NCBI GenBank assembly: GCA_007130585.1
Contig: SLSE01000180.1
Coordinates: 1-37,162 of the forward strand
Direction: 5' to 3'
Source: Syntrophomonadaceae bacterium
GTDB lineage: Bacteria > Bacillota > Dethiobacteria > DTU022
DNA length: 37,162 nucleotides
Made by a program: the position numbers and the translations under genes. The stretch's first letter is position 1; each line of letters opens with the position of its first letter. Positions 205 to 27,268 of the stretch are shown here, piece after piece. A model generated the notes under the pieces. It was not told the DNA's origin. It saw only the letters and a program-made list of their open reading frames with translations, and did not search any database.

Positions 205-1107
205 CTACCTGTGTCTTCTGGAGCGGGGGTCCAAAGCATCCCGCATTCCGTCACCGATCAGGTTAAACCCGAGAACCATAAAGAAAATTGCCAGTCCCGG
301 GTAAGTAGTGAGGTGGTGAGCGGTACGAATATACTGCCGCCCATCGCTCAGCATCCTGCCCCATTCAGGATCGGGAGCCTGGGCGCCAAGACCCAGGAAC
401 CCTAAACCGGCAGCCCAGAGAATGGCAGTTGCAATCTGGAATGTTGACTGGACAATAATCGGGCCCAGGCAGTTGGGCATGATATGGCGCACAATAATCC
501 TGGCATCCCCGATACCAAGCGACCTGGCGGCAGCCACGAAACCCTGTTCCTTAACAGAAAGAACCGAGCCGCGCACCAGGCGCGTATAGATCGGCACCGA
601 AGCAATGCCTACCGCAATCATAACATTTTCCACGCCAACACCGAGAATGGTCACCACCACAATGGCCAGCAGTATTCCGGGAAAAGCAATCATAATATCA
701 ACTATACGCTGTATGAAGAGGTCAAACTTACCGCCGTAATAGCCCGAGAGCGCTCCAACGGGCACGCCGATGGCCATACCGATGGCTACAGATATAAAAC
801 CGATCATCAAAGATATGCGGGCTCCGTAAAGGATCCTGGTAAAATTATCACGACCCAGCCAGTCTGCTCCAAGAATATGCTCGCTCGATGGGAGCTCCCG
901 GGCAACCCTGAAATTTGTGGCAACCGGGTCATAAGGAGTTATCAGCGGGGCAAAAATTGCCGCCAGCACAAAAATAGCAAGAATTGCCAGTCCAATCATA
1001 GCCATCCGGTTGCGCCGCAGGTGCCGCCATATCTGTCTCAGCTCGGTATCTCTTTTCGGAGTAGGCAGTTTGCTGATAGAGTCAACTTTTTCGCCTTTGT
1101 TGAACAT
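205..1107 (-). CDS. Peptide/nickel ABC transporter permease (DppC/OppC type)
   Basis: 300-aa multi-TM ORF with blocks typical of DppC/OppC permeases (LGADWLGRDNFTRILYGARISL; AAARSLGIGDARIIVRHIMPNC). A 3-nt gap separates it from the upstream permease gene. Confidence 0.9.
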   Translation of the reverse strand: MFNKGEKVDSISKLPTPKRDTELRQIWRHLRRNRMAMIGLAILAIFVLAAIFAPLITPYDPVATNFRVARELPSSEHILGADWLGRDNFTRILYGARISLMIGFISVAIGMAIGVPVGALSGYYGGKFDLFIQRIVDIMIAFPGILLAIVVVTILGVGVENVMIAVGIASVPIYTRLVRGSVLSVKEQGFVAAARSLGIGDARIIVRHIMPNCLGPIIVQSTFQIATAILWAAGLGFLGLGAQAPDPEWGRMLSDGRQYIRTAHHLTTYPGLAIFFMVLGFNLIGDGMRDALDPRSRRHR

Positions 1108-1110
1108 AGC

Positions 1111-2046
1111 CTACTCCACCTCCTTATTCCCGTAACTGATCCGGGGATCAAGGAAGGCATAAATAACATCGACCACCAGGTTAATCATCACAAACAGGAC
1201 GGCAAGCAGCAGAACTGCTCCCTGGACAACGGGATAATCGCGGGCCAGGATCGAATCAACCATCAGCCGGCCGACACCGGGCCATGAAAAGACGGTTTCG
1301 GTAAGCACCGCCCCGCCCAGGAGTGTTCCGAACTGCAGACCCATAACGGTGACAACCGGGATCATGGCATTTTTCAGGGCATGCTTGTAAACAACAACTC
1401 TTTCGACCAGGCCCTTGGAGCGGGCCGTGGTAATGTAATCCTGGCGCAAAACGTCAAGCATGCTCGAGCGGGTGATGCGGGCAATAAGTGCTGTTGTCGC
1501 CAGACCAAGGGTAAGGGCCGGCAGAACAAGATGCCGCCAGGTGCCGATCCCCCCCGAAGGGAACCAGCCGAGGTGAACAGAAAATAGGAGTTGAAACATA
1601 ATCCCCAGCCAGAATACCGGGGCTGCCACCCCGAACAGGGCAAAAAGCATACTGGCATTATCAAACAGCGAATAACGCTTGGTGGCGGAAACAATTCCGG
1701 CACTCATGCCGACAATTATGGCAATCATCATGGCTGCAGAAGCCAGGACCATGGTATTCGGGAAACGGGCCATTAATTCCGTCGTGACGGGCCGGCCCGT
1801 AAAGGTGGAGCGTCCCATGTCTCCCTGGAGCAGGTTCGTCAGGTAAACGTAGTACTGCACGTGGATACCTTCATCCAGAAGAAGATCCCTGCGGACCTGC
1901 TCTATATATTGAGGGCTGGCATGAACTCCGGCGATAGCGCGGGCGGGGTCACCCGGTATAAACCTTATAATTGCAAAAACAAGTATAGATACCCCGATTA
2001 AAACCGGAATGGCCAGCAGCAGCCTTCTGATAATGTAACCGTACAA
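1111..2046 (-). CDS. Peptide/nickel ABC transporter permease (DppB/OppB type)
   Basis: 311-aa ORF starting MYGYIIRRLLLAIPVLIGVSILVF. By my reading the start codon at 2044-2046 is TTG, with GGGAG upstream. PGDPARAIAG and ITTARSKGLVERVVVYKHALKNAMIPV blocks are typical of DppB/OppB. Confidence 0.9.
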   Translation of the reverse strand: MYGYIIRRLLLAIPVLIGVSILVFAIIRFIPGDPARAIAGVHASPQYIEQVRRDLLLDEGIHVQYYVYLTNLLQGDMGRSTFTGRPVTTELMARFPNTMVLASAAMMIAIIVGMSAGIVSATKRYSLFDNASMLFALFGVAAPVFWLGIMFQLLFSVHLGWFPSGGIGTWRHLVLPALTLGLATTALIARITRSSMLDVLRQDYITTARSKGLVERVVVYKHALKNAMIPVVTVMGLQFGTLLGGAVLTETVFSWPGVGRLMVDSILARDYPVVQGAVLLLAVLFVMINLVVDVIYAFLDPRISYGNKEVE

Positions 2047-2217: not shown

Positions 2218-3822
2218 TTACTGCGGCTGCAGGTTGAAACCAATGTAGATAACCCGGACGCTGTCCTCGAAGATTACATCGATGCCTGCCTGTGCTTCCA
2301 GGCGCTCGATTTCGGTCGGCGGGACAGCCATAATAGCATGGGCTTCTCCGGTTTCAAGCATGATTACCCTGGAGCTGGCTTCAGGAACGAACCTGAAAGT
2401 AACGGTTTCCAGCTCGGGAACATCGCCCCAGTAATCTTCATTTCTTTCCATTACAAGCTGCTCGCCGCGGTCCCAGCTTACGAACTTAAAGGGGCCGGTA
2501 CCCACGGGAGCATCAACATCCACATCATCAGCCAGCGCTTCCAGGGAGGCGGGGCTGTGCATAGCGATAAAGGAGTGGGAAAGGTGAGATGCGATCGGCG
2601 CAAACACCTGGTCGAGGTGCAGCCTTACAGTATACTCGTCAATTACTTCCACTTCATTTACCTCGCCGAGCAGGAAGGCGAACACGGCAGCCGTCTCACC
2701 TTCAAATTCACCTTTAGCCATGAAACGGTCCAGGTTATATTTCACCGCTTCTGCGTTGAAAGGTTCACCGTCATGGAAAGTTACGCCTTCGCGCAGGGTA
2801 AGGTCCCAGGCCAGGCCGTCTTCGGTGGGCTCCCAATCTAAGGCAAGGTTGGGTTCAAGGGTTCCGTCTTCTGCCAGGTAAATCAGGGTCTGAGCCATAT
2901 GCTCGGAAACGGTAGCGGCAGGAGCGGACATGATTTTCAGCGGATCGAGGTTTTCAGGCTCGGCACCGATGGCAATAATTAAATCCTGCTCTCCCTCGAT
3001 TGAGGCATCCCAGGCCAGGATATTTTCCAGCGGGTGGTGAATTAAGCCTTCCACACCTTCACGAACCGCATTTACCTGCCCTTCGTTGTGCAGGAAAATC
3101 CAGGGTGCATCTTCCCAGATTATGCTGATCGCCTGATCGTAAAGATCTTCGCGAACGGCAATATCCGGGGTTACCCTCGCTTCATCAAGCAGGGCATCCA
3201 CTTCATCGTTTGCATAGTAAGATACGTTGTTGGCGGGCGGCCACTGGCTGGAATGGAACAGCGCGTAAAGGCCGTAGTCTGCATCCAGGGTTACCGTGCC
3301 CCAGCCAAGCATGTAAGCTTCGTGCTCTGCATCTTCAGGCGGAACTATGACGGTGTCCAGGTAAGTTCCCCAGTCATAGGTGGTAAGGCTGGCAGTAATG
3401 CCAACTTCGGCCAGCATGGCCTGAACAGCTTCGGTTACAACATCATCCTGCGGGTAGCGGCCGGTCGGGTGGAAAAGCTCGATTTCAAAACCGTCGCCCC
3501 ACCCTGCTTCATCCAGCAGTTCCCGGGCCCTGTCGGGATCATACTCGTAAGGGCCTACCTGGGTATACCCGAAAACAGCGGGAACAACCGGAGCTGAGGA
3601 AGGAGACCCCACGCCTTCGAAAATGGTCTCTATAATCGCTTCTTTGTCGATAGCATAGTTAAGAGCCTGCCGGACCCTGACATCCTCAAAAGGATGAGTC
3701 ACTTCGGGCTCATCTACCGGATCATCGATCGGTTCGTCGATTACTTCATCCGGGGCGCAACCGCCGAACAACAACCCCGTCATTAAGAGCAAAACAAAAA
3801 ACCCAAACAGCAATTTCTTCAT
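2218..3822 (-). CDS. Solute-binding lipoprotein, ABC family 5 (peptide/nickel), with circularly permuted domain order
   Basis: 534-aa ORF with a lipoprotein signal (MKKLLFGFFVLLLMTGLLFGGC) and an acidic linker. The family-5 signature region ALDWEPTEDGLAWDLTLREGVTFHDGEPF and the PVGTGPFKF block are present but lie in the C-terminal half. The block normally found mid-protein (PFEDVRVRQALNYAIDKEAII) sits at the mature N-terminus. GGGGGA Shine-Dalgarno precedes the ATG. Confidence 0.9.
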   Translation of the reverse strand: MKKLLFGFFVLLLMTGLLFGGCAPDEVIDEPIDDPVDEPEVTHPFEDVRVRQALNYAIDKEAIIETIFEGVGSPSSAPVVPAVFGYTQVGPYEYDPDRARELLDEAGWGDGFEIELFHPTGRYPQDDVVTEAVQAMLAEVGITASLTTYDWGTYLDTVIVPPEDAEHEAYMLGWGTVTLDADYGLYALFHSSQWPPANNVSYYANDEVDALLDEARVTPDIAVREDLYDQAISIIWEDAPWIFLHNEGQVNAVREGVEGLIHHPLENILAWDASIEGEQDLIIAIGAEPENLDPLKIMSAPAATVSEHMAQTLIYLAEDGTLEPNLALDWEPTEDGLAWDLTLREGVTFHDGEPFNAEAVKYNLDRFMAKGEFEGETAAVFAFLLGEVNEVEVIDEYTVRLHLDQVFAPIASHLSHSFIAMHSPASLEALADDVDVDAPVGTGPFKFVSWDRGEQLVMERNEDYWGDVPELETVTFRFVPEASSRVIMLETGEAHAIMAVPPTEIERLEAQAGIDVIFEDSVRVIYIGFNLQPQ

Positions 3823-3958
3823 ACTTTATATCCCCCTTTTATTTTATTAACACAATCAGGTGCCATTAAACTATCAGTCATCTACCACCACCTTTACAGG
3901 AATTATACCTGAAATTAAGATTTTGCATGACCTGATCCGACACTAATCCTGTATTATT

Positions 3959-3986
3959 AAGATATCACAATTTCTGTCTATGTCAA
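3959..3986 (-). promoter_or_regulatory. Candidate sigma-70 promoter for the ABC importer operon
   Basis: The minus strand reads TTGACA (plus 3981-3986), a 16-nt spacer ending TGA, then TATCTT (plus 3959-3964). This leaves a leader of about 130 nt before the SBP start. A second -10-like TATAAT lies further downstream, so the true transcription start is uncertain. Confidence 0.3.
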
Positions 3987-4008
3987 CTTTTTGAATAAAG
4001 AACACGCT

Positions 4009-4989
4009 TTAAATAACTGCCCGGCCCGGCTCTATTTCTATATTTTCCCACTTGCCGCAGCGCCCGCCCCATCTGGCCAGTAATTTGCCGTCAAGCGACA
4101 GGTTAACAACTTCACAGATATTGGAGCAGTCGTTGCAGGTAAAAGTTTTCGCTTCGAAGTTTAGATCACTGAGAGAAAAACCCCTGAAGGATGTTTCCCC
4201 TTTTTCTTCCATGGCATAACGGGCCAGGACAGCAGACCCGATAGCGCCCATCACATTATAGTGACCGGGAACAATTACTTCCATATCCAGGGCCTTCTCG
4301 AAGGCGGCCTTAATGCCCACATTAGCGGCCACCCCTCCCTGGAAAACCACGGGCCCCAGGATTTCTTTGCCTTTGCCGACATTATTCAGATAGTTGCGGA
4401 CCAGGGCCTCGCAGAGCCCGGCAATAATATCTTCAATACCGTAGCCCATTTGCTGCTTGTGAACCATGTCGGATTCTGCAAAAACCGAGCAGCGCCCGGC
4501 AATCTGCGCCGGGCTTTCGTTCTTCAGGGCCAGGGAGCCGAAATCCTCGATAGGTATGCCCAGGCGGGCGGCCTGGTGATCGAGAAAGGAGCCCGTTCCG
4601 GCTGCGCAGACGGTATTCATGGCAAAATCGACGACCACACCGTGACGCAGGATCATTATTTTTGAATCCTGTCCCCCGATCTCAAGGACGGTCTGAACGC
4701 CGGGTACTTCAAGATCGGCGGCTATAGCATGAGCCGTAATTTCATTTTTTATCACATCGGCGCCAACGGCCGCCCCAACCAGGCTGCGGGCGCTGCCGGT
4801 AACTCCCGCACCGGCAATCGCCGCTCCCGCGGGCATCTTCCCGGCCAGGCTTTTGAACCCTTCCTGGACAACCCTGATTGGCTGTCCTCTCGTGCGCAGG
4901 TATTCAGAAGCAAGGACCCGGTTTGCGTCATCAATAATGACCAGGTTTGTACTGACAGAACCGACATCTATTCCCAGGTATATTTTCAT
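4009..4989 (-). CDS. BadF/BadG/BcrA/BcrD-type ATPase (HgdC-like 2-hydroxyacyl-CoA dehydratase activase family)
   Basis: 326-aa ORF starting MKIYLGIDVGSVSTNLVIID (actin-fold phosphate-1 motif). It has EIGGQDSK and CAAGTGSF blocks and a Cys-rich tail (CNDCSNIC...GGRCGKW). It starts 6 nt after the upstream gene ends. Confidence 0.85.
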   Translation of the reverse strand: MKIYLGIDVGSVSTNLVIIDDANRVLASEYLRTRGQPIRVVQEGFKSLAGKMPAGAAIAGAGVTGSARSLVGAAVGADVIKNEITAHAIAADLEVPGVQTVLEIGGQDSKIMILRHGVVVDFAMNTVCAAGTGSFLDHQAARLGIPIEDFGSLALKNESPAQIAGRCSVFAESDMVHKQQMGYGIEDIIAGLCEALVRNYLNNVGKGKEILGPVVFQGGVAANVGIKAAFEKALDMEVIVPGHYNVMGAIGSAVLARYAMEEKGETSFRGFSLSDLNFEAKTFTCNDCSNICEVVNLSLDGKLLARWGGRCGKWENIEIEPGRAVI

Positions 4990-4995
4990 ATAAGA

Positions 4996-6039
4996 TTAAC
5001 CCGCCCTGCTTTGCAGGCGCTTTGCGCACAGCATGTCGACGAATGCTTCGAGACGGGTCTGCACACCTCCTTCACCGGTATGCTCGTCAATAGTGAGGCC
5101 CAGAAAAGGCACACCGGCAGCTTTAGCTTCCAGCTCCAGGGTTTTATCGACCATTGCATCGGGGCCGCAGCCAAAAGCTGTGACATGGATAATCCCGTCA
5201 ATATACTTCTTTTGTTCCAGCAGGTACAGGCCGGCCCAGAAAACCTTGTTGCTGTAATACCAGAAAAAATTCTGGGGCAACTGCTTTGATATCCGGCGCA
5301 TCTCGCGCAGGGGTATCTGATCGTATGTAATTACCTCCACTCCCAGCTTCACCAGCTTATCGTAAACTCCGGCACTGATAAAAGAGTCATAAATTGCATA
5401 AGGATAGCCCAGCAGGGCAACAACAGCTTTTTTAGCCTTACCCTGACCGCCAGGCTTACTGCCGGCGAGGTAATCGCCCTCCTGCTTCTGCCCGAAAATT
5501 ACCTCCCGGGCTTCTGCCGGCTTTAATCCTTTAGATAGGAGCAGATTATACTCCCTGTGCCTGCGAAGGGCAGAGGCGGCGGCAGAAATTATTTTAAAAG
5601 GATTCCTTACTCCCAGGGAGTGGGCGACAGAAAAAAAGAAACGAAACTGCCCGCCCGGGAAGCCGCTGCAGTCATAGCGGGCATCAATCAGTTCAGGAAG
5701 CCCGGAGCCTGTGAAGCGGATCATATCGGGCAGGCCCAAAAATTTGGGGCAAAAAGTGGATTTACCGTCGGCGCTGATCATACGGGGGACAAAGATGTAG
5801 TCCACCCTGCCGGCAAGATCAAAAACATGACCGTGAAATATTTTAATAGGGATACAGGCATCATTTACCGTTTCCCTGATCCCTTCTTCGAGGATTTTCC
5901 GGTTGGTAGCAGCGGAAACGATCACCTCAGCGCCCAATTTCTCGAGAAACACCCTCCAGAGAGGATAGAAACTGTAGTAAGCAAGGGAACGGGGAATGCC
6001 AACCTTAACCTGCCTTTTCAAATATTTCACCTCTAACAT
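4996..6039 (-). CDS. DUF2229-type protein with a dehydratase-subunit-like C-terminus (activase-associated)
   Basis: 347-aa ORF. VKVGIPRSLAYYSFYPLWRVFLEKLGAEVIVS matches my memory of the DUF2229 region of 'CoA-substrate-specific enzyme activase' proteins. The C-terminal HVTAFGCGPDAMV...GLTIDEHTGEGGVQTRLEAFVDML resembles C-termini of 2-hydroxyacyl-CoA dehydratase/BcrB-like subunits. The ATG at 6039 has no Shine-Dalgarno. A TTG at 6019-6021 lies 5 nt after GAGGTGA and may be the real start. Confidence 0.7.
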   Translation of the reverse strand: MLEVKYLKRQVKVGIPRSLAYYSFYPLWRVFLEKLGAEVIVSAATNRKILEEGIRETVNDACIPIKIFHGHVFDLAGRVDYIFVPRMISADGKSTFCPKFLGLPDMIRFTGSGLPELIDARYDCSGFPGGQFRFFFSVAHSLGVRNPFKIISAAASALRRHREYNLLLSKGLKPAEAREVIFGQKQEGDYLAGSKPGGQGKAKKAVVALLGYPYAIYDSFISAGVYDKLVKLGVEVITYDQIPLREMRRISKQLPQNFFWYYSNKVFWAGLYLLEQKKYIDGIIHVTAFGCGPDAMVDKTLELEAKAAGVPFLGLTIDEHTGEGGVQTRLEAFVDMLCAKRLQSRAG

Positions 6040-6048
6040 TAAGGTTGT

Positions 6049-6079
6049 AAAAATGAGAAAGGGATGTCCCTGACATCCC
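6049..6079 (-). terminator. Intrinsic terminator/attenuator hairpin immediately upstream of the DUF2229-activase operon
   Basis: The minus strand reads GGGATGT-CAGGG-ACATCCC (7-bp stem, 5-nt loop) followed by TTTCTCATTTTT. It ends roughly 10-30 nt before the candidate starts of the next gene. Confidence 0.45.
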
Positions 6080-6174
6080 TAGTATAATAACTTATTTAGG
6101 AAAAGATTTCAAAGTTCTTTTCAAAAAAAGGAAACCATTAACGGCAGGACAGGATTCTTCCCGGGGCAAAAGTC

Positions 6175-6267
6175 TTAATTTGCCTTTCTTACATCCCTGG
6201 CCACCATGAAATAGATGAAGAGAGTTGTTCCAAGGAAAAAACCGATAAAAAGCAGTGCATTCAGCAT
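6175..6267 (-). CDS. Hypothetical 30-aa hydrophobic peptide (small membrane protein, leader peptide or toxin-like)
   Basis: My own minus-strand translation is MLNALLFIGFFLGTTLFIYFMVARDVRKAN-stop. GGGAGAG Shine-Dalgarno lies about 9 nt upstream of the ATG at 6265-6267. The peptide has one predicted TM helix plus a charged tail. It is too short to appear in the ORF track and I recognise no homology. Confidence 0.3.
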   Translation of the reverse strand: MLNALLFIGFFLGTTLFIYFMVARDVRKAN

Positions 6268-6486
6268 ACCCTTATCTCTCCCTTCTGAATTGGTCGTCCT
6301 GTTGTAAAGCCGGGAATCAACGGCTCCGTTTTTTTACGCTTTTGTGGATCATGACCCTTACTGCCCAGGATATCAGGAGAATAATGCCAATTATAACTAT
6401 GTATTCCAATGGATAATTCCGCCTCTCCGGCTGTAGGGCAGCAATACCGGTTCCGGTTAACAGGGTTATACTGCCTTATGCTGATC

Positions 6487-6515
6487 ATTATATAAAATTG
6501 CGAGTCATATGTCAA
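6487..6515 (-). promoter_or_regulatory. Consensus sigma-70 promoter firing leftward (minus strand)
   Basis: The minus strand reads TTGACA (plus 6510-6515), an exact 17-nt spacer TATGACTCGCAATTTTA, then TATAAT (plus 6487-6492). It is divergent from the tRNA-Pro promoter. Confidence 0.6.
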
Positions 6516-6597
6516 CAATATTGCAAATATTTACTCAAGTTAATTTTTTCTCAAGCTCTCTCATTTTGCCTGCGCCAGGGAGCACCCTTTTAAAGTA

Positions 6598-6626
6598 TTG
6601 TTCTTTAATATTCGCTGTGCTATAAT
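6598..6626 (+). promoter_or_regulatory. Promoter of tRNA-Pro
   Basis: TTGTTC (6598-6603), a 17-nt spacer ending in TGC (extended -10 TG), then TATAAT (6621-6626). An AT-rich upstream region precedes it. The tRNA 5' end lies 14 nt downstream of the -10. Confidence 0.6.
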
Positions 6627-6639
6627 CATGTTGCATTAG

Positions 6640-6716
6640 CGGGGCGTAGCGCAGTTTGGTAGCGCGCTTGGTTCGGGACCAAGAGGCCGGAGGTTCAAAT
6701 CCTCTCGCTCCGACCA
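6640..6716 (+). tRNA. tRNA-Pro (anticodon CGG), CCA encoded
   Basis: Cloverleaf folded by hand. Acceptor stem CGGGGCG/CGCTCCG has one G-T pair. D-arm is GCGC-AGTTTGGTA-GCGC. Anticodon stem is CTTGG/CCAAG with loop TTCGGGA (anticodon CGG at 6674-6676). T-loop is TTCAAAT, the discriminator is A, then CCA at 6714-6716. Confidence 0.95.
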
Positions 6717-6720
6717 CCAA

Positions 6721-6759
6721 CAGGGAAAGCACGGTTAAAAACCGTGCTTTCCCTGTTTT
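6721..6759 (+). terminator. Rho-independent terminator after tRNA-Pro (possibly also stops the convergent operon)
   Basis: A perfect 15-bp stem CAGGGAAAGCACGGT / ACCGTGCTTTCCCTG with loop TAAAA is followed by TTTT. It lies between the tRNA and the 3' end of the minus-strand operon that ends at 6819. Confidence 0.8.
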
Positions 6760-6818
6760 GCAGTTAAAGAGAACCTCTGAATCTGTAATTTTGCCCTATT
6801 TGCGCCCGACTGGCAAGA

Positions 6819-7094
6819 TCAGGATTTCAGGTCATCAAGTTTTTTCTTGACGTCATCTGATTTCTTTTCGAATTCTTTTTTGGCTTCTTCCCACTTTTCT
6901 TCTCCGATATCTTTTACGGCATCCAGGTTATTCCTGGCTTCATCTTTCTTTTTCTGCAGTTGATCGATCTGTTCCTGGTATTTTATTTTTGCATCGGCGC
7001 CTGCCTTCTCAGCCTGGGCTTTCTTTTTGTCGATTTCAGCCTGCACCTCTTTAATCAGTGCTTCCTGTTTTTCCTGGTAGGCTTTCTTATCCAT
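6819..7094 (-). CDS. Hypothetical Lys/Glu-rich coiled-coil protein (91 aa)
   Basis: The ORF has heptad-like charged composition (EKQEALIKEVQAEIDKKKAQAEKAG...). It starts 3 nt after the upstream gene's stop, so it is probably co-transcribed. I recognise no family. Confidence 0.55.
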   Translation of the reverse strand: MDKKAYQEKQEALIKEVQAEIDKKKAQAEKAGADAKIKYQEQIDQLQKKKDEARNNLDAVKDIGEEKWEEAKKEFEKKSDDVKKKLDDLKS

Positions 7095-7935: not shown

Positions 7936-10104
7936 TCAGTCCTCCAATAGCAGCAGGGTTAACAGCAGGGCCCTCTGCAATAGTTCTCCCCGGTGGATAC
8001 ATTCGTGAGGAGTAAACATATCCCGGCTGGCCGGGGCAAATCCGCAGATTACCGGTATGCCCGCGGGCACCTCGCCGGCGGCTGAAGGCAGCAGGCTGGA
8101 ATCGACACCAAAGGGAAGGTTCCACTCTTCGCTGATCTTTTTAAGCTGCGCAATAACAGCTTCAGCCGCCGTGGAACGATTTAAAGGAGGCCTTTCTTCA
8201 AGCCTTTCTATATAAACTTTGGTTTCATCCCCTTCCTCCTGCTGCGACTCAAACAACGAATGGAGTCTCGTTTCCGCTTCATCGGCCCGCTCTGAATCAA
8301 GAAAGGTAATATAAACTATGGCCCTGATCCGGTGCGGGAGCAGAACGCTATAGCGTTCGGAATGAACCTCCTGGACGGCAACGGTTAGCCTTTCTTCAGG
8401 ACAGCTCAGTGTGCCGATCTGATCCGCCCGGCTTAAGAACCAGCTCATCAGGTCGCTTTCCGAATCGTGAGCCCCGATCCGCTTAAATTCACCTTCCACC
8501 AGGATGCTGAATTTTCGGGAACCCCGGCGCTGATCAACAATCTTACCGCTGCGAAACCCGGGCTGCATAATAATCACCCGTCCCGCTTTTGAGGCAGCCT
8601 GCTGCAGGTATGGAGCGCTGTAACGCATCCCCCGGCCTTCATCGGCATAAATAAACACGCCCGGCTTGGCAGTTTCCAGCTTTTCCACCTGCTTCAGGGT
8701 TTTCAGCACCTGCAGGATACAGGCCAGACCCGCCCGGCTGGAAGCGATACCCTCGCCGTAAAGCCATTCCGGATCACGGCGAAAAGGGATAGGATATCCG
8801 CCACCTCCATCGCGGGGTACATCTATAGAAGCTACCAGCAGGGTGCCTCCCTCCAGGCCGGCGTCTGTCTGCCAGGTCCAGGCCGAGCGCTTGCTGCTAA
8901 ACTGTTTGGCAATAGACAACCCCAGTTCTGCAAACCGGTGCTCCAGTCTTTTTATCACTGTTCCCAGCCCGACGGGATCTCCTGTCCAGCTGGGCAGGTT
9001 AGTCCAGTTTTTTAATTCTTCTTCATACTCATCCCGGCAATGGATAAGGTTTGTAAAGGCCGTTGTCCTCGGATCATCATGAAGCAGGGAAGCGCTGTCC
9101 TCGCTAATTAGGGGTCCGAAATAGCGCTGGCTGGTCACCTCGATCAGCCGGTTGACCAGGGCGCTGTAATCCAGGCCGATAGTTTTTGCAGCATACACGT
9201 AAGAACCGCCCGGTCCCAGGCTGGCCATTGAATTTACTTCCAGGATATACGGATTGCCCCGGTCATCAATCCTGAAATCCACCCTGGCGCTGTCAAAACA
9301 GCCCAGCGCTTTAAAAGCATCTACGGCCAGCATTTTGACCTTCTCGGTTACCGCCGGTTCCAGGGGCGCAGGGCAAATGGTTTCCAGTTCCCGGCCGCTG
9401 GTTTTTATTTTATCCTCGTAGGTATAAATCTGCTCCCCTTCTTTAAAAACTATTTCCACGGGAGGAAAAGCTTCCACGGGATCGTTCCCGAGGAGGCCCA
9501 CGTTTATTTCACGTCCGGCAATATATTCTTCCACCAGGGTCGGGGCCCTGAACATGTTGTAAATTACCTCGACCCCTTCCCGCAGCTCCCGATCATTATT
9601 AACAATCTTCAGGCCAAATGAAACCGCCTCATCCTTGGGCTTCACAATTAAAGGGTACCTCAGGCCCTCACTGAGGGGCAGAGGAAAAGCGGGTGTTTCA
9701 AGAACAGTAAAATTGGGGGTGGGAAGTCCTTTCTGAAGTAAAACCATCTTGGTCAGCACTTTATCCAGGGCTATTGCGTGGGTTTCCGGTCCGGAGCCGA
9801 CATAGGGAATGCCCAGCATTTCAAGGATACCCGGGATATGGGTATAGCGGGCCCGTCCCTGGATTCCGTAACTCAGGTTAAAAACCAGGCCGGGACGCTC
9901 TCCCGATATTACGGTGGGCATAAATTCTTCCAGGGCGGAAATGATATTTTTGTCCCCCTCAAAAGCCTTCACCTGGTGCCCCCCGGCCTCAAGAGCTTCC
10001 GTGATCATATCTATTGTCTGCAGGCCGTATTTCTCGCGGTTGGGCGTTCCGAAAAGGTTGATTACCGCCTGGCTGTCGCGGTTATAGATTATTGCTATTT
10101 TCAA
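7936..10104 (-). CDS. Fusion protein: Ddl-like ATP-grasp ligase (about aa 1-330) plus an M20-peptidase-like domain (about aa 345-722), paralogue A
   Basis: 722-aa ORF. The N-terminal half has Ddl-family ATP-grasp features (IPGILEMLGIPYVGSGP, DKVLTKMVLLQKGLPTP, PLIVKPKDEAVSFGL, EEYIAGREINVG, RVDFRIDDRGNPYILEVNS). The C-terminal half resembles the M20 catalytic plus lid domains (YGEGIASSRAG, IYADEGRGMRYS, FSILVEGEFKRIGAHD, TPHECIH). It starts 4 nt after the ggt stop. Confidence 0.8.
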   Translation of the reverse strand: MKIAIIYNRDSQAVINLFGTPNREKYGLQTIDMITEALEAGGHQVKAFEGDKNIISALEEFMPTVISGERPGLVFNLSYGIQGRARYTHIPGILEMLGIPYVGSGPETHAIALDKVLTKMVLLQKGLPTPNFTVLETPAFPLPLSEGLRYPLIVKPKDEAVSFGLKIVNNDRELREGVEVIYNMFRAPTLVEEYIAGREINVGLLGNDPVEAFPPVEIVFKEGEQIYTYEDKIKTSGRELETICPAPLEPAVTEKVKMLAVDAFKALGCFDSARVDFRIDDRGNPYILEVNSMASLGPGGSYVYAAKTIGLDYSALVNRLIEVTSQRYFGPLISEDSASLLHDDPRTTAFTNLIHCRDEYEEELKNWTNLPSWTGDPVGLGTVIKRLEHRFAELGLSIAKQFSSKRSAWTWQTDAGLEGGTLLVASIDVPRDGGGGYPIPFRRDPEWLYGEGIASSRAGLACILQVLKTLKQVEKLETAKPGVFIYADEGRGMRYSAPYLQQAASKAGRVIIMQPGFRSGKIVDQRRGSRKFSILVEGEFKRIGAHDSESDLMSWFLSRADQIGTLSCPEERLTVAVQEVHSERYSVLLPHRIRAIVYITFLDSERADEAETRLHSLFESQQEEGDETKVYIERLEERPPLNRSTAAEAVIAQLKKISEEWNLPFGVDSSLLPSAAGEVPAGIPVICGFAPASRDMFTPHECIHRGELLQRALLLTLLLLED

Positions 10105-10108
10105 CGCT

Positions 10109-11761
10109 TCATACCTCCCTGTCGTTCGTGTTTATGAACTGCGGCCCGCGGGCACTGCCATCCCGCCGGGGGTCAGACACGCCGGTAAAGTCTCCACCGG
10201 GCGTTTCCGGAAGTTTAACGGCATGCACGCTGCCCAGGTAGAAACTGTAAGCCCCTTTGCCCGTAACCTGAAAACCGGCCCGGCTCAAAGCCTCTACCAC
10301 CTCCGGCCGGTATATTCGCTTTTCGATGGCCGCCTTCCCGCTGCTGCCCGCGTGCAGGCGGGGCGCTTCAACGGCCTCACCCAGGCTCTGACCCGAATCG
10401 ATAACCCGGCAAATAACCTGGGCCAGGACCGTTGATATCCGTTCACTGCCCGGGCTGCCCAGCATCATCAGGGGCTCTCCATTTTTCCTGAACAGGAGCG
10501 TAGGAGCCACGCTGCTGAAAGGGCGCCCCCCGGGGATCAGGAAGTTCGGATGAAGCATGTTCTTGTAATCAAAGGCGCTCATATAATTGTTATAAAAAAA
10601 TCCCAGGTTCCCGGTCATGGTTTTTGCACCGAAAACCAGCTCGATCGATTGGGTTATCCCCACGATATTGCCATAGGAGTCGGCAGCCGACAGGTGGGTT
10701 GTTTCTCCCGAGGTGGGCGGAGGTTCAAATTTTTCTTCAGCCACATACAGCAGCAGATCTTTAATCCGGGATGCAATATGGGAAGCGCTGCCTTTGTCAA
10801 CCATCCACCGGTCATCGAGCTGGGGGTAACGGGCCGGATCAATCGGCAGCCGTTCCCTTTTAACCAGGGCAGCCCGAAAAGCCATGGCCAGCAGCAGGTA
10901 GCAGAGAGGGCTGTCCGGAAGCAATCTTTCCGCATCAAAGAGCTCCAGGATATTTAAAATCTGGACCAGGGCCCGCCCTGCGCCCGGAGGAGGGTAAGTA
11001 GCCAGCGCATAGCCGCGGTAAGAACCTTTTAAAACCTCCCGTTGGATGGGATAGGGAATCTGGCTTAAATCCGCCCTGGATATGTAGCCGTTACGCTGCT
11101 TCATGTCCTCCAGGATGCTTTCGGCAATATCTCCCAGGTAAAAATCCCGCCAGCCCTTCTCTGCGATCTGTTCCAGGCAGGAGGCAAGCTGGGGCTGGTA
11201 CGCGGTATCGCCGGCGTTCAGGGGCCTGCCGTTCTTGAAGAAAATTGAGCGCACCGTTTGATCCTTGAGCTTTTCTTTTTCCCTGGCCAGAAGCCTCTGC
11301 TGAAGGGCGGTAATCTTAAACCCGTATTTGGCGGCGCCTATAGCCGGCTTAAGAACCACGTCGATGGGAAGCGTTCCGTAAGTTTCGAGAAGGTATCCGA
11401 GCGCAGCCGGGGTGGAAGGCACGGTGGAAGCGCTGAGACCCAGCTTGAGAGGCCGGGCAGGAAGCCGGCTGGGATTGATTTCAAAAGGGGCCCGGGAGGA
11501 TCCGTCCAGGGCAACGGTTACCGGCTCACCGTTGGGGCAGTGGTGCAGCAAGACCATGCTCTGCCCGCCCAGGCCTGAAGCCTGCGGCTCTGTAACTCCC
11601 AGGCAGAAAGCAGCAGCCACTGCGGCATCAACGGCGTTGCCACCCAGCTCAAGCATCCGCACTCCCGCTTCGGTAGCCGGATCGGACGCGGTTGAAACCA
11701 TGCCATAACGGCTGGTGGCTGTTTTTGCTTTTTTCTGTTTAATATCTTCTGTTTCGGCCAA
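10109..11761 (-). CDS. ggt: Gamma-glutamyltranspeptidase family protein without a signal peptide
   Basis: 550-aa ORF with VDAAVAAAFCLGVTEPQASGLGGQ, the autoprocessing/nucleophile block GETTHLSAADSYGNIVGITQSIE, and GSPGSERI. The N-terminus is hydrophilic (MAETEDIKQKKAKT) with no signal sequence. The start is TTG at 11761 by my reading, with an alternative ATG at 11701 (MVSTASD). Confidence 0.9.
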   Translation of the reverse strand: MAETEDIKQKKAKTATSRYGMVSTASDPATEAGVRMLELGGNAVDAAVAAAFCLGVTEPQASGLGGQSMVLLHHCPNGEPVTVALDGSSRAPFEINPSRLPARPLKLGLSASTVPSTPAALGYLLETYGTLPIDVVLKPAIGAAKYGFKITALQQRLLAREKEKLKDQTVRSIFFKNGRPLNAGDTAYQPQLASCLEQIAEKGWRDFYLGDIAESILEDMKQRNGYISRADLSQIPYPIQREVLKGSYRGYALATYPPPGAGRALVQILNILELFDAERLLPDSPLCYLLLAMAFRAALVKRERLPIDPARYPQLDDRWMVDKGSASHIASRIKDLLLYVAEEKFEPPPTSGETTHLSAADSYGNIVGITQSIELVFGAKTMTGNLGFFYNNYMSAFDYKNMLHPNFLIPGGRPFSSVAPTLLFRKNGEPLMMLGSPGSERISTVLAQVICRVIDSGQSLGEAVEAPRLHAGSSGKAAIEKRIYRPEVVEALSRAGFQVTGKGAYSFYLGSVHAVKLPETPGGDFTGVSDPRRDGSARGPQFINTNDREV

Positions 11762-11861: not shown

Positions 11862-14030
11862 TTAATCTTCCAGCAAGAACAGTGCTAAGAGGACCAGACG
11901 CTGCATAAGTTCTCCGCGATGGATACATTCATGGGGAGTATATATGTCCCGGCCGGCCGGCCCGAATCCGCATATGACCGGGATACCCGCCGGCACTTCT
12001 CCGGCGGCCGAAGGCAAAAGGCTTGCCTCCAATCCAAAAGGAAGCCTCCAGGTGTCGCTTAGTTTTTCCAGCCGATCAATTAATTTTTCCGTTTCCGGAG
12101 AGCAGATCAAAGGCGGCCTTTCCACCATTTTTTCAATATATACGCTGGGTTCGCCCTGCAGACCCTGCGAGGGGGCAAAAAGCATTCTCAGCCGGATTTC
12201 CGCCTGGTCGGCCAGCTCCGGCTCCAGGAATGACACATACACCATGGCCCTGATCCTGTGGGGAAGCAGAACGCTGTGACGCTCCGACTGCACTTCCTGG
12301 AGCGCAACTGTTACTTTTTCTTCCGGTCTGTTTAAGGAATCTATCATATCCGCCCGGCTTACAAACCACTTCATCAGGTTACCGAGAGTATCCCGGGCTC
12401 CGATGCGCTGAGATAATCCTTCGATCAGGATATTGAATTTTCGCAGCCCCCTGCGTTGATGCACAACTTTGCCGTTCAGGAAACCGGGCTGCAAGACTAT
12501 TACCTGCCCAACCCGGGAAGCAGCTTTCTGCAGCAGTTTGCTGCTGTATCTCATGCCACGCCCCTCGTCTGCATAAAGAAATATCCCGACTTTATTACAC
12601 TGGAGCCTCTCTGCATAATGCAGGCCTTTAAGAACTTTTAGAAGAGAGGCAATACCGGCCCGGCTGGAAGCAATGCCTTCTCCATACAGCCATTCAGAGT
12701 CCTGCCGGAAAGGCATGGAATAAGCGCCGGCCCCGTAGCCGGGAACGTCGACCGGAACAACAAGAAGAGTTCCTTCTTCAAAACCGGCTGCAGTTTCCCA
12801 GGCCCAGACCGAGCGGTAGTCCGAAAATGCTTCAACCGGCTTAAGGCGCAGTTCCATTAACCTGGACTCCACTCTTTTGATTACAGCCCCCACCCCGACA
12901 GGATCATCAGTGCAGCTCGGCAAACCGGTCCAGTTTTTCAGTTCCTCTTCCAGCTGATCTCTACCCTGTGTAAGAAAAGTAAAGATTTTTGTCCGCGGGT
13001 CATCACTGGTAAACGCTTCACTGCTCTCCGGATAGAAAGGTCCGAAATAGCGTTGACTGGCAATTCTTATCAGGCGGTTGACCAGTTCGCTGTATCCCAA
13101 CCCGGTTTTTTTAGCGGCAAACACGTAAGACCCCTTTGGCTCAAGGCTGGGCATAGAGTTAACCTCCAGGATATAGGGGTTTTCTTCGGAATCCAGGCGA
13201 AAGTCTATACGGGCGCTATCGAAGCAGCCCAGGACCTGAAATGCTTCTACGGCCATTGACTGAATTTTTTCAGTTAACCCCGCCTCCATGAGAGCAGGGC
13301 ATATTTTCTCCAGCTTGCGGCCGCTGGCAAGGATCTTATCCTCGTAGGTATAGATGCGCTCACCTTTATCAAAAATCACTTCAACGGGAGGAAAGGCCTG
13401 CACCGGATTATTACCAAGCAACCCGACATTTATTTCGCGGCCTTCTATATACTCTTCGACCAGGGTTGGAGCCCCGTACATATCATAAATGGCCTTCACC
13501 CCTTCCCGTAACTCTTCATTGTTTCGCACAATTTTTAATCCCAAGGAAACCGCTTCACCCCTGGGTTTTACAATGAGTGGAAAGCGCAGTTCGTCGGCAA
13601 GGGGCAGATTAAAATCGGGGCTTTCGATGACAGTAAATTTGGGAGTGGGCAGACCTTTCTGCAGCAGCACTATTTTAGTCAGCACTTTATCGAGGGCAAT
13701 TGTATGTGTTTCGGGGCCTGAACCCACATAAGGGATGCCCAGCATTTCCAGGATGCCCGGTATATGGGCATAGCGGGCCCGCCCCTGGATACCGTAGCTA
13801 AGGTTGAAAACCAGCCCCGGACGTTCGCCTGATATAACCGTTGGCATAAACTTTTCAAGGGCGGTTATAACATTTTTATCGCCCTCAAAAGCTTTAACCT
13901 GATGTCCTCCCACCGTCAGAGCGCCCATGACCATATCAATGGTTTCCAGGCCGTACTTTTCCCGGCTTGGAGTCCCAAAGAGGTTAATCACAGCCTGGCT
14001 TTCCCGGTTAAAAATCACGGCAACTTTCAC
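11862..14030 (-). CDS. Fusion protein: Ddl-like ATP-grasp ligase plus an M20-peptidase-like domain, paralogue B
   Basis: 722-aa ORF, collinear with paralogue A over its full length. It has the same motif set, for example GILEMLGIPYVGSGPETH, YGEGIASSRAG, LYADEGRGMRYS, TPHECIHRGEL, and the same ...LLED C-terminus. GTG start at 14028-14030 is preceded by GGGGAGGG. Confidence 0.8.
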   Translation of the reverse strand: MKVAVIFNRESQAVINLFGTPSREKYGLETIDMVMGALTVGGHQVKAFEGDKNVITALEKFMPTVISGERPGLVFNLSYGIQGRARYAHIPGILEMLGIPYVGSGPETHTIALDKVLTKIVLLQKGLPTPKFTVIESPDFNLPLADELRFPLIVKPRGEAVSLGLKIVRNNEELREGVKAIYDMYGAPTLVEEYIEGREINVGLLGNNPVQAFPPVEVIFDKGERIYTYEDKILASGRKLEKICPALMEAGLTEKIQSMAVEAFQVLGCFDSARIDFRLDSEENPYILEVNSMPSLEPKGSYVFAAKKTGLGYSELVNRLIRIASQRYFGPFYPESSEAFTSDDPRTKIFTFLTQGRDQLEEELKNWTGLPSCTDDPVGVGAVIKRVESRLMELRLKPVEAFSDYRSVWAWETAAGFEEGTLLVVPVDVPGYGAGAYSMPFRQDSEWLYGEGIASSRAGIASLLKVLKGLHYAERLQCNKVGIFLYADEGRGMRYSSKLLQKAASRVGQVIVLQPGFLNGKVVHQRRGLRKFNILIEGLSQRIGARDTLGNLMKWFVSRADMIDSLNRPEEKVTVALQEVQSERHSVLLPHRIRAMVYVSFLEPELADQAEIRLRMLFAPSQGLQGEPSVYIEKMVERPPLICSPETEKLIDRLEKLSDTWRLPFGLEASLLPSAAGEVPAGIPVICGFGPAGRDIYTPHECIHRGELMQRLVLLALFLLED

Positions 14031-25969: not shown

Positions 25970-27268
25970 ATGATACCCGCCCTGAACCTGCGGCTTCAAA
26001 AAAAGGGGGCCCGCGTATTGTTTGTAGATCCCGAATTAAACAGATTCCTGGAAAAGCACTCTTTCAAAGATGGTAACCGTGCTGCTGAAGCAAGAGATAC
26101 CCTTATCGAAAATGTCACGGTCGGATCTATTCCTGCTGTTCGTTACACTAACGAATTCTGGACTTCGCGCCAGCGACAGGCGGCCTCTATTCACGAGATC
26201 TCTTACCGGGCCTGCTTTAAGCCCCAGCTTCCCCGCTTTTTTATTGAACTGCTTACAAAACCGGGCGATACGGTCTATGATCCCTTCTCCGGGCGGGGGA
26301 CAACAGCAGTTGAAGCCGCCCTGATGGGACGGCGCGTAATTGCCAACGACGTTAATCCCTTGAGTAAAATATTATCAGCCCCCAGGCTGGCCCTGCCGGA
26401 GATTGACGGCATCAGGGAACGCCTGTCAGAAATCCCCTTCTGTGAAAACCTGATAAATGAAACAAACCTCTCGATGTTTTACCATCCCCGCACCGAAGGG
26501 GAGTTGTTATCGCTGCGCGGTTACCTGATTGAGAGGCAAGATCTTGTGCCCGACGACCGGGATAACTGGATTAGAATGGTGGCTACAAGCCGCCTGACAG
26601 GGCATTCAAAAGGTTTTTTTTCCGTATACACCATGCCGCCCAACCAGGCGGTATCAGCGGAAAGGCAGGAGAAAATAAACTTAAAACGCGGCCAGCGGCC
26701 CGAATACAGGGATGTAAAGAAAATAATCGAACTCAAAACAGCCGGGCTGCTCAGGAACCTGACCGCCGGGCAGAAAGCAAACCTGCGCAGTGCCTCGGCC
26801 GATGCCCTTTTCCTGGAGAACGATGCCGCCGATACGAGCGCTATTCCTGCAGAGAGCGTTGATTTAACAGTAACTTCGCCCCCTTTTTTAAATGTTGTCC
26901 AGTATTCCAGGGACAACTGGCTGCGCTGCTGGTTTAATAATATTAACCTGGAAGAAGTTGAAAGTAAAATAACCATGGCCTCTAACCTGGACCAATGGAT
27001 ATCAACAATGAACGGGGTATTCCGGGAGCTTTACCGGATAACCAAACCGGCAGGATGGGTTGCTTTTGAAGTGGGTGAAATCAGAAATGGCCGAATTAAG
27101 CTGGAAGAAGCGGTGGTTCCCCTGGGCACCGGGAACGGGTTCGACTGCGCCGGCATTGTCGTTAACAGCCAGAAGTTCACAAAAACCTCTAATATCTGGG
27201 GAATTCATAATAACCGGTCCGGCACCAATAGCAACCGCATTGTACTGTTCAAAAAAGGGTCCCGCTGA
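25970..27268 (+). CDS. DNA methyltransferase (N4/N6 family; motif I precedes motif IV; SPPF catalytic motif)
   Basis: 432-aa ORF. HEISYRACFKPQLPRFFIELLTKPGDTVYDPFSGRGTTAVEAALMGRRVIANDVNP is the AdoMet motif I context of N4/N6 DNA MTases. VDLTVTSPPFLNVVQYS is motif IV, followed by FRELYRITKPAGWVAFEVG. An alternative TTG start at 26018 lies 8 nt after AAGGGGG. Confidence 0.75.
   Translation: MIPALNLRLQKKGARVLFVDPELNRFLEKHSFKDGNRAAEARDTLIENVTVGSIPAVRYTNEFWTSRQRQAASIHEISYRACFKPQLPRFFIELLTKPGDTVYDPFSGRGTTAVEAALMGRRVIANDVNPLSKILSAPRLALPEIDGIRERLSEIPFCENLINETNLSMFYHPRTEGELLSLRGYLIERQDLVPDDRDNWIRMVATSRLTGHSKGFFSVYTMPPNQAVSAERQEKINLKRGQRPEYRDVKKIIELKTAGLLRNLTAGQKANLRSASADALFLENDAADTSAIPAESVDLTVTSPPFLNVVQYSRDNWLRCWFNNINLEEVESKITMASNLDQWISTMNGVFRELYRITKPAGWVAFEVGEIRNGRIKLEEAVVPLGTGNGFDCAGIVVNSQKFTKTSNIWGIHNNRSGTNSNRIVLFKKGSR

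Follow-up and report, generated by a model that had tools for sequence, protein, structure and literature searches.

A 37,162-nucleotide (nt) stretch of DNA from a Syntrophomonadaceae bacterium (contig SLSE01000180.1 of assembly GCA_007130585.1; hereafter the window) encodes a substrate-binding protein (SBP) of cluster C, family 5, the lipoprotein receptors of ATP-binding cassette (ABC) importers, in which the two parts of the mature chain stand in reversed order: behind the signal peptide comes the canonical C-terminal part (block B), followed by the canonical N-terminal part (block A). This permuted arrangement is real, conserved and under purifying selection in soda-lake bacteria. We estimate a probability of about 85% that the gene specifies a functional natural circular permutant serving the adjacent DppBCDF-type importer, of which the SBP is predicted to be the only binding component. 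An earlier note on this DNA, made from the letters alone, had described the protein as circularly permuted, cleanly, with respect to the family-5 order, and swapped coordinates in Pfam, NCBIfam and PDB-chain alignments bear this out. The open reading frame (ORF), its normal total length of 534 amino acids (aa) and the sequence quoted in that note proved exact (Table 1).

Pfam matches the protein to one family only, SBP_bac_5 (PF00496; gathering score 32.4), at 317.1 bits and E = 2e-94, and does so in two stretches, the better of which places query residues 322–532 on profile positions 2–209 of 368. As the earlier note had anticipated for a profile search, the model coordinates are exchanged in NCBIfam: residues 43–261 align with positions 278–497 of 512 in the GsiB profile, and residues 281–498 with positions 8–221 of 501 in the NikA profile. 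Solved structures gave the same picture with phmmer. Query residues 281–532 correspond to residues 46–291 of the Bacillus anthracis protein 5U4O and residues 43–260 to its residues 293–505, and residues 44–266 correspond to 275–497 of mature Escherichia coli DppA (1dpp), whose residue 275 lies opposite Pro44 of the query. Stretch by stretch, the E-values of the top PDB matches are 1e-28 to 1e-47, and the best of these matches are all cluster-C proteins. E-values of 1e-57 to 1e-94 for the profile and structure matches exclude chance. Judged from these alignments, homology to SBP family 5 is not in doubt, and the SBP departs only in its block order from the colinear Ia(N)-Ib-Ia-II/III-Ia(C) order of SapA, DppA and OppA. 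Blocks 43–276 and 279–534 correspond, without overlap and at normal total length, to residues 305–537 and 48–302 of P0008, a canonical relative that is 82% identical to the permutant after block re-ordering. Reciprocal homology of the N- and C-terminal parts with no leftover duplication belongs to the definition of a circular permutant (PMC3320104).

The strict family-5 signature, [LIVM]A x2 [WI] x1-2 [SN][KE]D x4 T[FY] x [LIV]R x3 K (PMC8519434), does not occur in the SBP, in which the nearest segment is LALDWEPTEDGLAWDLTLREGV (aa 326–347, nt about 2782–2847), nor does it occur in any of the 120 closest relatives, permuted or canonical. Its absence thus characterizes the subfamily rather than the permutation; the GsiB-like subfamily has diverged from the classical signature.

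The ends of the two blocks match the canonical chain closely. Block A opens with QDLIIAIG, comprises lobe 1 (Ia and Ib) and the long hinge strand 1 (...SVRVIYIGF), and after N-L-Q-P-Q closes the protein at ...VRVIYIGFNLQPQ. Where the permutant chain ends in ...GFNLQPQ-stop, canonical relatives read on as ...GFNLERE-PFDDxRVRQ, and the mature body of the permutant starts with HPFEDVRVRQ, the point of that canonical continuation. Block B supplies the larger part of lobe 2, together with hinge strand 2 and the final segment of lobe 1 (secondary structure of the P0008 model), and closes with the old C-terminus, ...AWDASIE. The earlier note had placed the fusion at aa 277/278, nt 2989–2994; at nt 2994–2989 lies the linker G277-E278, which connects I275-E276 of the old C-terminus with Q279-D280-L281 of the old mature N-terminus. 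The signal peptide is nearly identical to that of the canonical relatives P0008 and P0009, indicating that the signal kept its place. Canonical relatives carry the same type of tether ahead of the old N-part, a low-confidence coil in the P0008 model.

Homologues were sought among 5.8 billion proteins, and the best 120 relatives were classified by block order. Thirteen protein clusters share the cut of the window's gene (the main type), one is a permuted variant, and the rest are canonical. The permuted clusters are 75–89% identical to the query and derive from JGI, ENA, NCBI and Logan assemblies. Among GTDB species representatives, the permuted gene occurs in six metagenome-assembled genomes (MAGs) assigned to Syntrophomonadaceae or to unclassified Bacillota, four of which bear soda-lake sediment sample names. 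The closest canonical genes are found in sister MAGs, partly from the same samples, and no listed MAG contains both arrangements. When a strict DNA pattern spanning the fusion was run on metagenomes, it retrieved four more JGI contigs, all of the main cut type and three of them from Kulunda soda-lake sediments, and no new cut sites. In a search of 1.84 billion representatives, P0015 was the only permuted representative among the best 150; because these representatives were clustered at 50% identity, which merges permuted and canonical proteins, that search is no measure of frequency.

The window is probably derived from a metagenome, which lends some initial plausibility to an assembly or binning artefact in which reads of two gene copies or of a tandem repeat were misjoined into the order signal-B-A. 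However, the same in-frame order is present in about 25 or more contigs that are mutually 75–90% identical and were assembled independently (JGI, ENA, NCBI, Logan). The permutants have junction sequences of their own (QPQ-stop, H/N-P-F and the G-D/E linker), each locus holds a single SBP copy, and the ratio of non-synonymous to synonymous substitutions (dN/dS) among permuted genes is only 0.03–0.11 at dS 1.2–1.7, compared with 0.05–0.06 for canonical pairs (both by the Nei-Gojobori method). An artefact is therefore so improbable that we give it no further weight, and the permuted order of orthologues from independent assemblies also answers the concern about misassembly raised in the earlier note.

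It is likewise very improbable that the gene has lost its function in the transporter, whether as a pseudogene or as a decaying relic of a tandem duplication. The failure of AlphaFold2 (AF2) to give a usable model from a shallow alignment could be taken as a sign of decay, but over a dS of about 1.2–1.7 the gene is held by purifying selection as strongly as its canonical orthologues, and no lineage has a disrupted ORF. A promoter-like site and a Shine-Dalgarno sequence precede the gene, it is the sole SBP gene of a complete operon, with no second family-5 SBP within the window, and the binding-cleft motif (GWGTVTLDADYG) is invariant. Canonical orthologues that are 80–86% identical to the permutants occupy the same operon slot. 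Taken together, independent assemblies, the shared operon slot and low dN/dS exclude both misassembly and a pseudogene.

The position of the cut was read from an AF2 model of canonical P0008 built with 82 sequences (predicted local distance difference test score, pLDDT, 90.6; predicted template-modelling score, pTM, 0.84). This model superposes on E. coli YliB/GsiB (1UQW) with a template-modelling (TM) score of 0.95 and on 5U4O with a TM score of 0.93, and it has the two-lobed fold with the extra domain Ib and two hinge strands. We interpret its two long strands, E284–299 and E502–515, as the counterparts of the DppA hinge, which consists of two connecting strands (PMC8566422). The main cut (...GFN-LERE/PF...) falls in a 9-residue loop, 300–308, between E284–299 and helix H309–318, a position that agrees with the start of SapA domain II at residue 313 (PMC8519434). 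The suggestion in the earlier note that the new termini fall at an inter-lobe crossover is therefore nearly right: they are close to it, though not exactly there, in the loop just after hinge strand 1. The cut also agrees with the corresponding domain boundaries, which we take to be 270/271 in OppA and 262/263 in DppA. Numbers for these boundaries are not given in PMC3173086 or PMC12728205.

Given that the new termini lie in the loop right after hinge strand 1, the hinge itself appears intact. The model suggests that the permutant retains the binding cleft as well as both hinge strands, that the lipid tether has shifted from lobe 1 to lobe 2, and that lobe 2 would be made of the N-terminal ~200 residues together with the tip of the C-terminal strand. 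In P0008, the first strand (E50–55) directly follows the tether and the C-terminus ends in a short bridge (535–536); a two-residue linker between the old termini would fit these terminal elements. The mature body would begin at the first helix of lobe 2, traverse this lobe and then hinge strand 2, and so reach the old C-terminus, from which the linker would lead into the old N-terminal strand and then into lobe 1 (Ia, Ib). The last element would be the long hinge strand 1, which at its far end would have to insert back into lobe 2. Ligand capture would still follow the Venus flytrap scheme, the changes being in which lobe bears the tether and in the completion of lobe 2 by the extreme C-terminus. 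As the earlier note suggested, the shifted tether might alter docking on the permeases.

The variant among the best 120 relatives, P0051 (Logan SRR016876; locus L081, a complete SBP-DppBCDF operon), is certainly the product of a second, independent permutation, in a Dethiobacter-like lineage and with another cut loop. Its fusion is of the same type (...AWDAWIE-DED-QDLIIAIG), and relative to the main type its new termini are shifted 67 residues down the chain, the body starting with TEITLYHPTGRY and ending with ...ELLIEAGVISE-stop. On the P0008 model this cut is in loop 367–372 of lobe 2, between H357–366 and E373–380. P0051 groups with the canonical P0050 of Dethiobacter alkaliphilus at 100% bootstrap in the neighbour-joining (NJ) tree; the blocks of the two proteins are 85–93% identical, their signal peptides are near-identical, and the pair shows dS 0.40 and dN/dS 0.18. 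The nucleotide make-up of P0051 can be written in terms of the canonical locus L082: positions 2839–3080 (upstream region, signal and tether), then 4069–4550 (tail of B), then 3099–4043 (three tether codons, A and head of B), and finally the 3' flank from 4571 on. The former 3' untranslated region (UTR) provided the last four codons of P0051 and its stop.

For the main type, the sequences somewhat favour a single origin in soda-lake Syntrophomonadaceae followed by spread between lineages through homologous recombination. In NJ trees of proteins de-permuted in silico, the 13 main-type permutants are scattered over at least five lineages between canonical proteins, with P0005 and P0006, for instance, clustering with canonical P0008/9/12 (bootstrap 92). 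A tree of the flanking DppB and DppC is likewise polyphyletic: the loci WIN and L001-3 form the sister group of canonical L007 (99), L004 lies within a canonical clade (100) and L006 is basal. With the junction columns removed, 200 of 200 bootstrap trees require at least five arrangement changes. Such placement in at least 4–6 separate, well-supported lineages by gene body and flanking permeases could be explained by recurrent permutation at the same loop, through a hot spot or a templated mechanism, and the independent event that is certain in the Dethiobacter lineage adds to that case.

The junctions themselves argue against recurrence. Main-type permutants have in common the 3' end CAG CCG CAG TAA, which differs from the aligned canonical GAG CGG GAG by three G-to-C changes; its variants have CAA at third positions, ATG as the first codon in some and, in L004, no first codons at all. 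All of them carry H/N-P-F at the new start, and QD(L/I/M) follows the fusion in the main type, compared with QNL in several of the closest canonical relatives (P0008, P0009, P0012, P0018 and P0019). Sites diagnostic of the permuted state are concentrated at three junction zones and are mostly non-synonymous. A synonymous AGR codon near the junction is found in six of the seven permuted loci, as opposed to CGY in the eight closest canonical loci. These derived characters are arbitrary and common to all main-type permutants, and the conflict between the SBP tree and the flank tree is in itself a sign of recombination. On these grounds we consider recurrent permutation at the main-type loop improbable. 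Under a single origin, the permuted allele would have spread among co-occurring lineages and then undergone conversion inside blocks A and B. Programmed, reversible switching between the two orders was rejected as an explanation, as the fixed junction substitutions (ERE to QPQ and others) go beyond simple cut-and-rejoin.

As to how the order was exchanged, we lean towards permutation by duplication, a model described in PMC3320104, in which an in-frame tandem duplication of the mature region would have been followed by loss of the first A and the last B. Since the N-terminal signal and tether are retained, an internal in-frame deletion is required rather than a new start codon. The fusion linkers of all permutants have 2–5 residues (G-E, G-D-E, G-E-D, G-E-G-S, G-E-D-A, D-E-D-E and others) and resemble the last residues of the canonical tether, and the signal, tether and 3'UTR have not moved. 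Linkers like the end of the canonical tether, these fixed elements, and the combination of two cuts with one fusion type fit the model. In-frame tandem family-5 modules behind a single signal peptide (the A-B-A-B type) were found among the 1.84 billion representatives in more distant family-5 lineages. P0145 (1016 aa) has one lipoprotein signal and two complete modules that are 69% identical and joined by a 14-residue linker, P0126 (1137 aa) has two family-5 modules with a Cu_amine_oxidN1 domain ahead of each, and P0229 (1398 aa) has about three. These fusions would be the type of intermediate needed by permutation by duplication, and it is possible that they are multi-site receptors. Tandem duplication followed by trimming, the origin proposed in the earlier note, thus gains plausibility from the second permutant and from natural A-B-A-B fusions. 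Two candidates for microhomology at the junctions, GATGGT (L082) and AACCTG (L007/L009), did not reproduce the observed junctions.

A number of results weigh against the interpretation given so far. The best-scoring NCBIfam family, the GsiB equivalog NF011942, reaches 276.5 bits with a cut-off of 594, and the DppA equivalog NF043070 reaches 208 bits with a cut-off of 1005; given that a split alignment lowers the score, the sub-cut-off value for GsiB does not exclude a GsiB-like function. AF2 of the permutant, for which only 12 permuted sequences were available, gave pLDDT 42 and pTM 0.33 and was not interpreted. In a MAFFT trial, unmodified canonical proteins aligned to block B only and block A stayed 12 sequences deep. 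The proposed assignment of hinge and lobes derives from the secondary structure of a modelled canonical relative and from the domain boundaries given above for SapA, OppA and DppA, not from coordinates. The case for a single origin with recombination is drawn from NJ trees and shared junction characters, and block-wise differences between nearest neighbours are small.

The mechanism of origin is also affected, in that no tandem intermediate was found within the permutant's own subfamily, and both cuts are unusually clean, with 0–2 residues of gap or overlap at the new termini of both permutants. This cleanness is not predicted by duplication and deletion. One break in a circular or template-switch intermediate would be expected to leave ends this precise, so that a one-step cut-and-paste or replicative template switch of A and B has to be weighed, together with fission and re-fusion of half genes; the unmoved signal, tether and 3'UTR would suit these routes as well. 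We nevertheless judge this group of mechanisms to be unlikely, if far from negligible. In-frame tandem family-5 SBPs do exist elsewhere, two cut sites with the same fusion type are as predicted for a differently trimmed tandem (PMC3320104), and the 3' breakpoint of P0051 enters the UTR, fitting an independent, imprecise deletion. Fission and fusion in particular are unlikely: split half genes were seen in none of the 120 relatives, and a half gene lacking a signal peptide could not be exported.

With regard to function, canonical relatives are named 'glutathione ABC transporter substrate-binding protein' in public records, and genes for a gamma-glutamyltranspeptidase and M20 peptidases lie near the operon. 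Together with the likeness to GsiB and DppA, these observations suggest that the ligand is probably glutathione or a small or gamma-glutamyl peptide. The cleft motif is identical in permuted and canonical forms, which suggests unchanged specificity.

The lipoprotein signal (...FGG/C) and the adjoining DppB and DppC permeases are the export and operon features of family 5. Permuted and canonical loci have the gene order activase pair, SBP, DppB, DppC in common. Two ATPase genes lie beyond the window edge, and the permuted loci L001 and L081 continue after DppC with two ABC_tran/oligo_HPY ATPase genes (DppD and DppF). The activase and DUF2229/HGD-D pair is also syntenic in L001, L005–L007, L010, L011, L018, L022 and L023, permuted and canonical alike; L001 has a second DUF2229/HGD-D gene after the operon.

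Table 1. Features of the SBP gene and its operon in the window (window positions).
Feature	Position (nt)	Strand	Basis
SBP gene, permuted family-5 (cluster C, GsiB/DppA-like) lipoprotein, 534 aa	2218..3822	-	ORF; PF00496, 317 bits; swapped coordinates
Stop codon of the SBP gene	2218-2220	-	
Signal peptide, aa 1-21, and lipobox Cys22 (MKKLLFGFFVLLLMTGLLFGG, then C)	3757..3822	-	sequence reading
Tether, acidic/proline-rich, aa 23-42, APDEVIDEPIDDPVDEPEVT	3697..3756	-	sequence reading
Block B, aa 43-276, canonical C-terminal part	2995..3696	-	alignment to 5u4o 293-505, 1uqw 275-493, 1dpp 275-497
Fusion linker G277-E278	2989..2994	-	alignment with canonical relatives
Block A, aa 279-534, canonical N-terminal part	2221..2988	-	alignment to 5u4o 46-291, NikA profile positions 8-221
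Shine-Dalgarno-like AGGGGGA, 8 nt 5' of ATG	3831..3837	-	sequence reading
Candidate sigma-70-like promoter TTGACA-N16-TATCTT, 5' of the SBP gene	3953..3986	-	consensus scan, pattern match only
DppB/OppB-type permease, next gene of the operon	1111..2046	-	BPD_transp_1 + BPD_transp_1_N
DppC/OppC-type permease	205..1107	-	OppC_N + BPD_transp_1
BcrAD_BadFG-type activase ATPase and DUF2229/HGD-D protein, directly 5' of the SBP operon	4009-4989, 4996-6039	-	

Elsewhere in the window, two paralogous 722-aa proteins (7936-10104 and 11862-14030, both on the minus strand) combine an N-terminal ATP-grasp region (D-Ala-D-Ala-ligase-like) with a C-terminal M20-peptidase-like region, and their genes flank that of the gamma-glutamyltranspeptidase (10109-11761, minus strand). 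These fusions have an unusual architecture and possibly make or turn over gamma-glutamyl or other non-ribosomal peptides; the neighbourhood may be related to the substrate of the transporter. An Lnt-like apolipoprotein N-acyltransferase (30242-31777, plus strand; LNT_N and CN_hydrolase) is encoded in what is apparently a Bacillota (Syntrophomonadaceae) genome, and it may be relevant to acylation of the lipoprotein SBP. GC content, about 0.52 elsewhere in the window, dips to 0.417 at 6001-7000, where ORF 6819-7094 (minus strand) specifies a lysine/glutamate-rich, probably coiled-coil protein of 91 aa with no significant family match. A DNA methyltransferase with N6_N4_Mtase and UPF0020 domains lies at 25970-27268 (plus strand).

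Two independent permutations in related haloalkaliphilic Bacillota were both opened in lobe 2. It is a tentative and rather doubtful idea that membrane-anchored cluster-C SBPs gain an adaptive advantage when the tether moves from lobe 1 to lobe 2, and that the main-type allele crossed species boundaries by recombination and replaced the canonical form in several lineages, its mostly non-synonymous substitutions close to the junctions being kept in spite of the recombination. If true, these loci would amount to an experiment by nature on the influence of anchor position and chain topology on SBP dynamics and permease docking, and a rare circular permutation would be traceable as a segregating structural allele. 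OppA, DppA, GsiB, NikA and their kin are among the best-studied bacterial receptors. Because the orthologues differ by only 14–20% and sit in identical operons, effects of topology and tether on folding, hinge dynamics, affinity and docking are measurable with nearly all else constant. The two cut sites and the natural tandem fusions are direct material for testing permutation by duplication, and the Dethiobacter pair (dS 0.4) still displays its nucleotide breakpoints. Movement of a structural allele between lineages by recombination would be unusual for a change in protein topology. In practice, pipelines based on full-length equivalogs under-call such permutants (the GsiB score is halved here), and the two naturally permissive loops may serve the design of cluster-C SBP biosensors.

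The phenomenon itself is known; the novelty lies in the fold cluster affected, in where the chain was cut, in the occurrence of two independent events and in the population-genetic behaviour. The literature that we searched describes no cluster-C/family-5 SBP that is circularly permuted in nature, in agreement with the earlier note, although cluster B offers a precedent in TpMglB-2 (Tp0684) of Treponema pallidum, a naturally permuted ABC substrate-binding lipoprotein of Type Ic / Cluster Bc (PMC4990184). TpMglB-2 still binds glucose and closes, and its authors speculated that the topology might be an adaptation to tethering (PMC4990184). Both cases are natural permutations of a tethered SBP lipoprotein. 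In contrast to the SBP described here, however, TpMglB-2 is a sugar-binding cluster-B protein of type I fold with no homology to it at the sequence level, and the SBP, whose Pfam match is SBP_bac_5 only, is no member of Cluster Bc. About three N-lobe strands were moved in TpMglB-2, creating a fourth hinge crossover, whereas half of the chain is swapped here and no extra crossover is implied. The permuted part of TpMglB-2 is 13% identical to its counterpart; the 80–86% identity of canonical orthologues makes the present event reconstructable at the nucleotide level.

Compared with its canonical relatives GsiB (YliB, 1UQW), DppA (1DPP/1DPE) and B. anthracis 5U4O, the permutant belongs to the same sequence family and has the same lipoprotein signal, tether and DppBCDF-type operon, but its blocks are swapped, its old termini are fused, its new termini lie in lobe 2 after hinge strand 1, and its tether would sit on lobe 2 instead of lobe 1. 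Saposin/swaposin and the DNA methyltransferases (PMC3320104) likewise show fusion by a short linker, alternative cut sites and tandem forms in the wider family; the SBP differs from them in the retention of signal and tether, in its apparent spread by recombination and in that the intermediate was not found in the subfamily. Finally, engineered permuted periplasmic binding proteins, which are common and serve in biosensors (e.g. PMC6335823), demonstrate that SBP folds tolerate termini in surface loops once the old termini are linked. Those are laboratory constructs, whereas the SBP of this window occurs naturally and is both conserved and selected as part of a transport operon.

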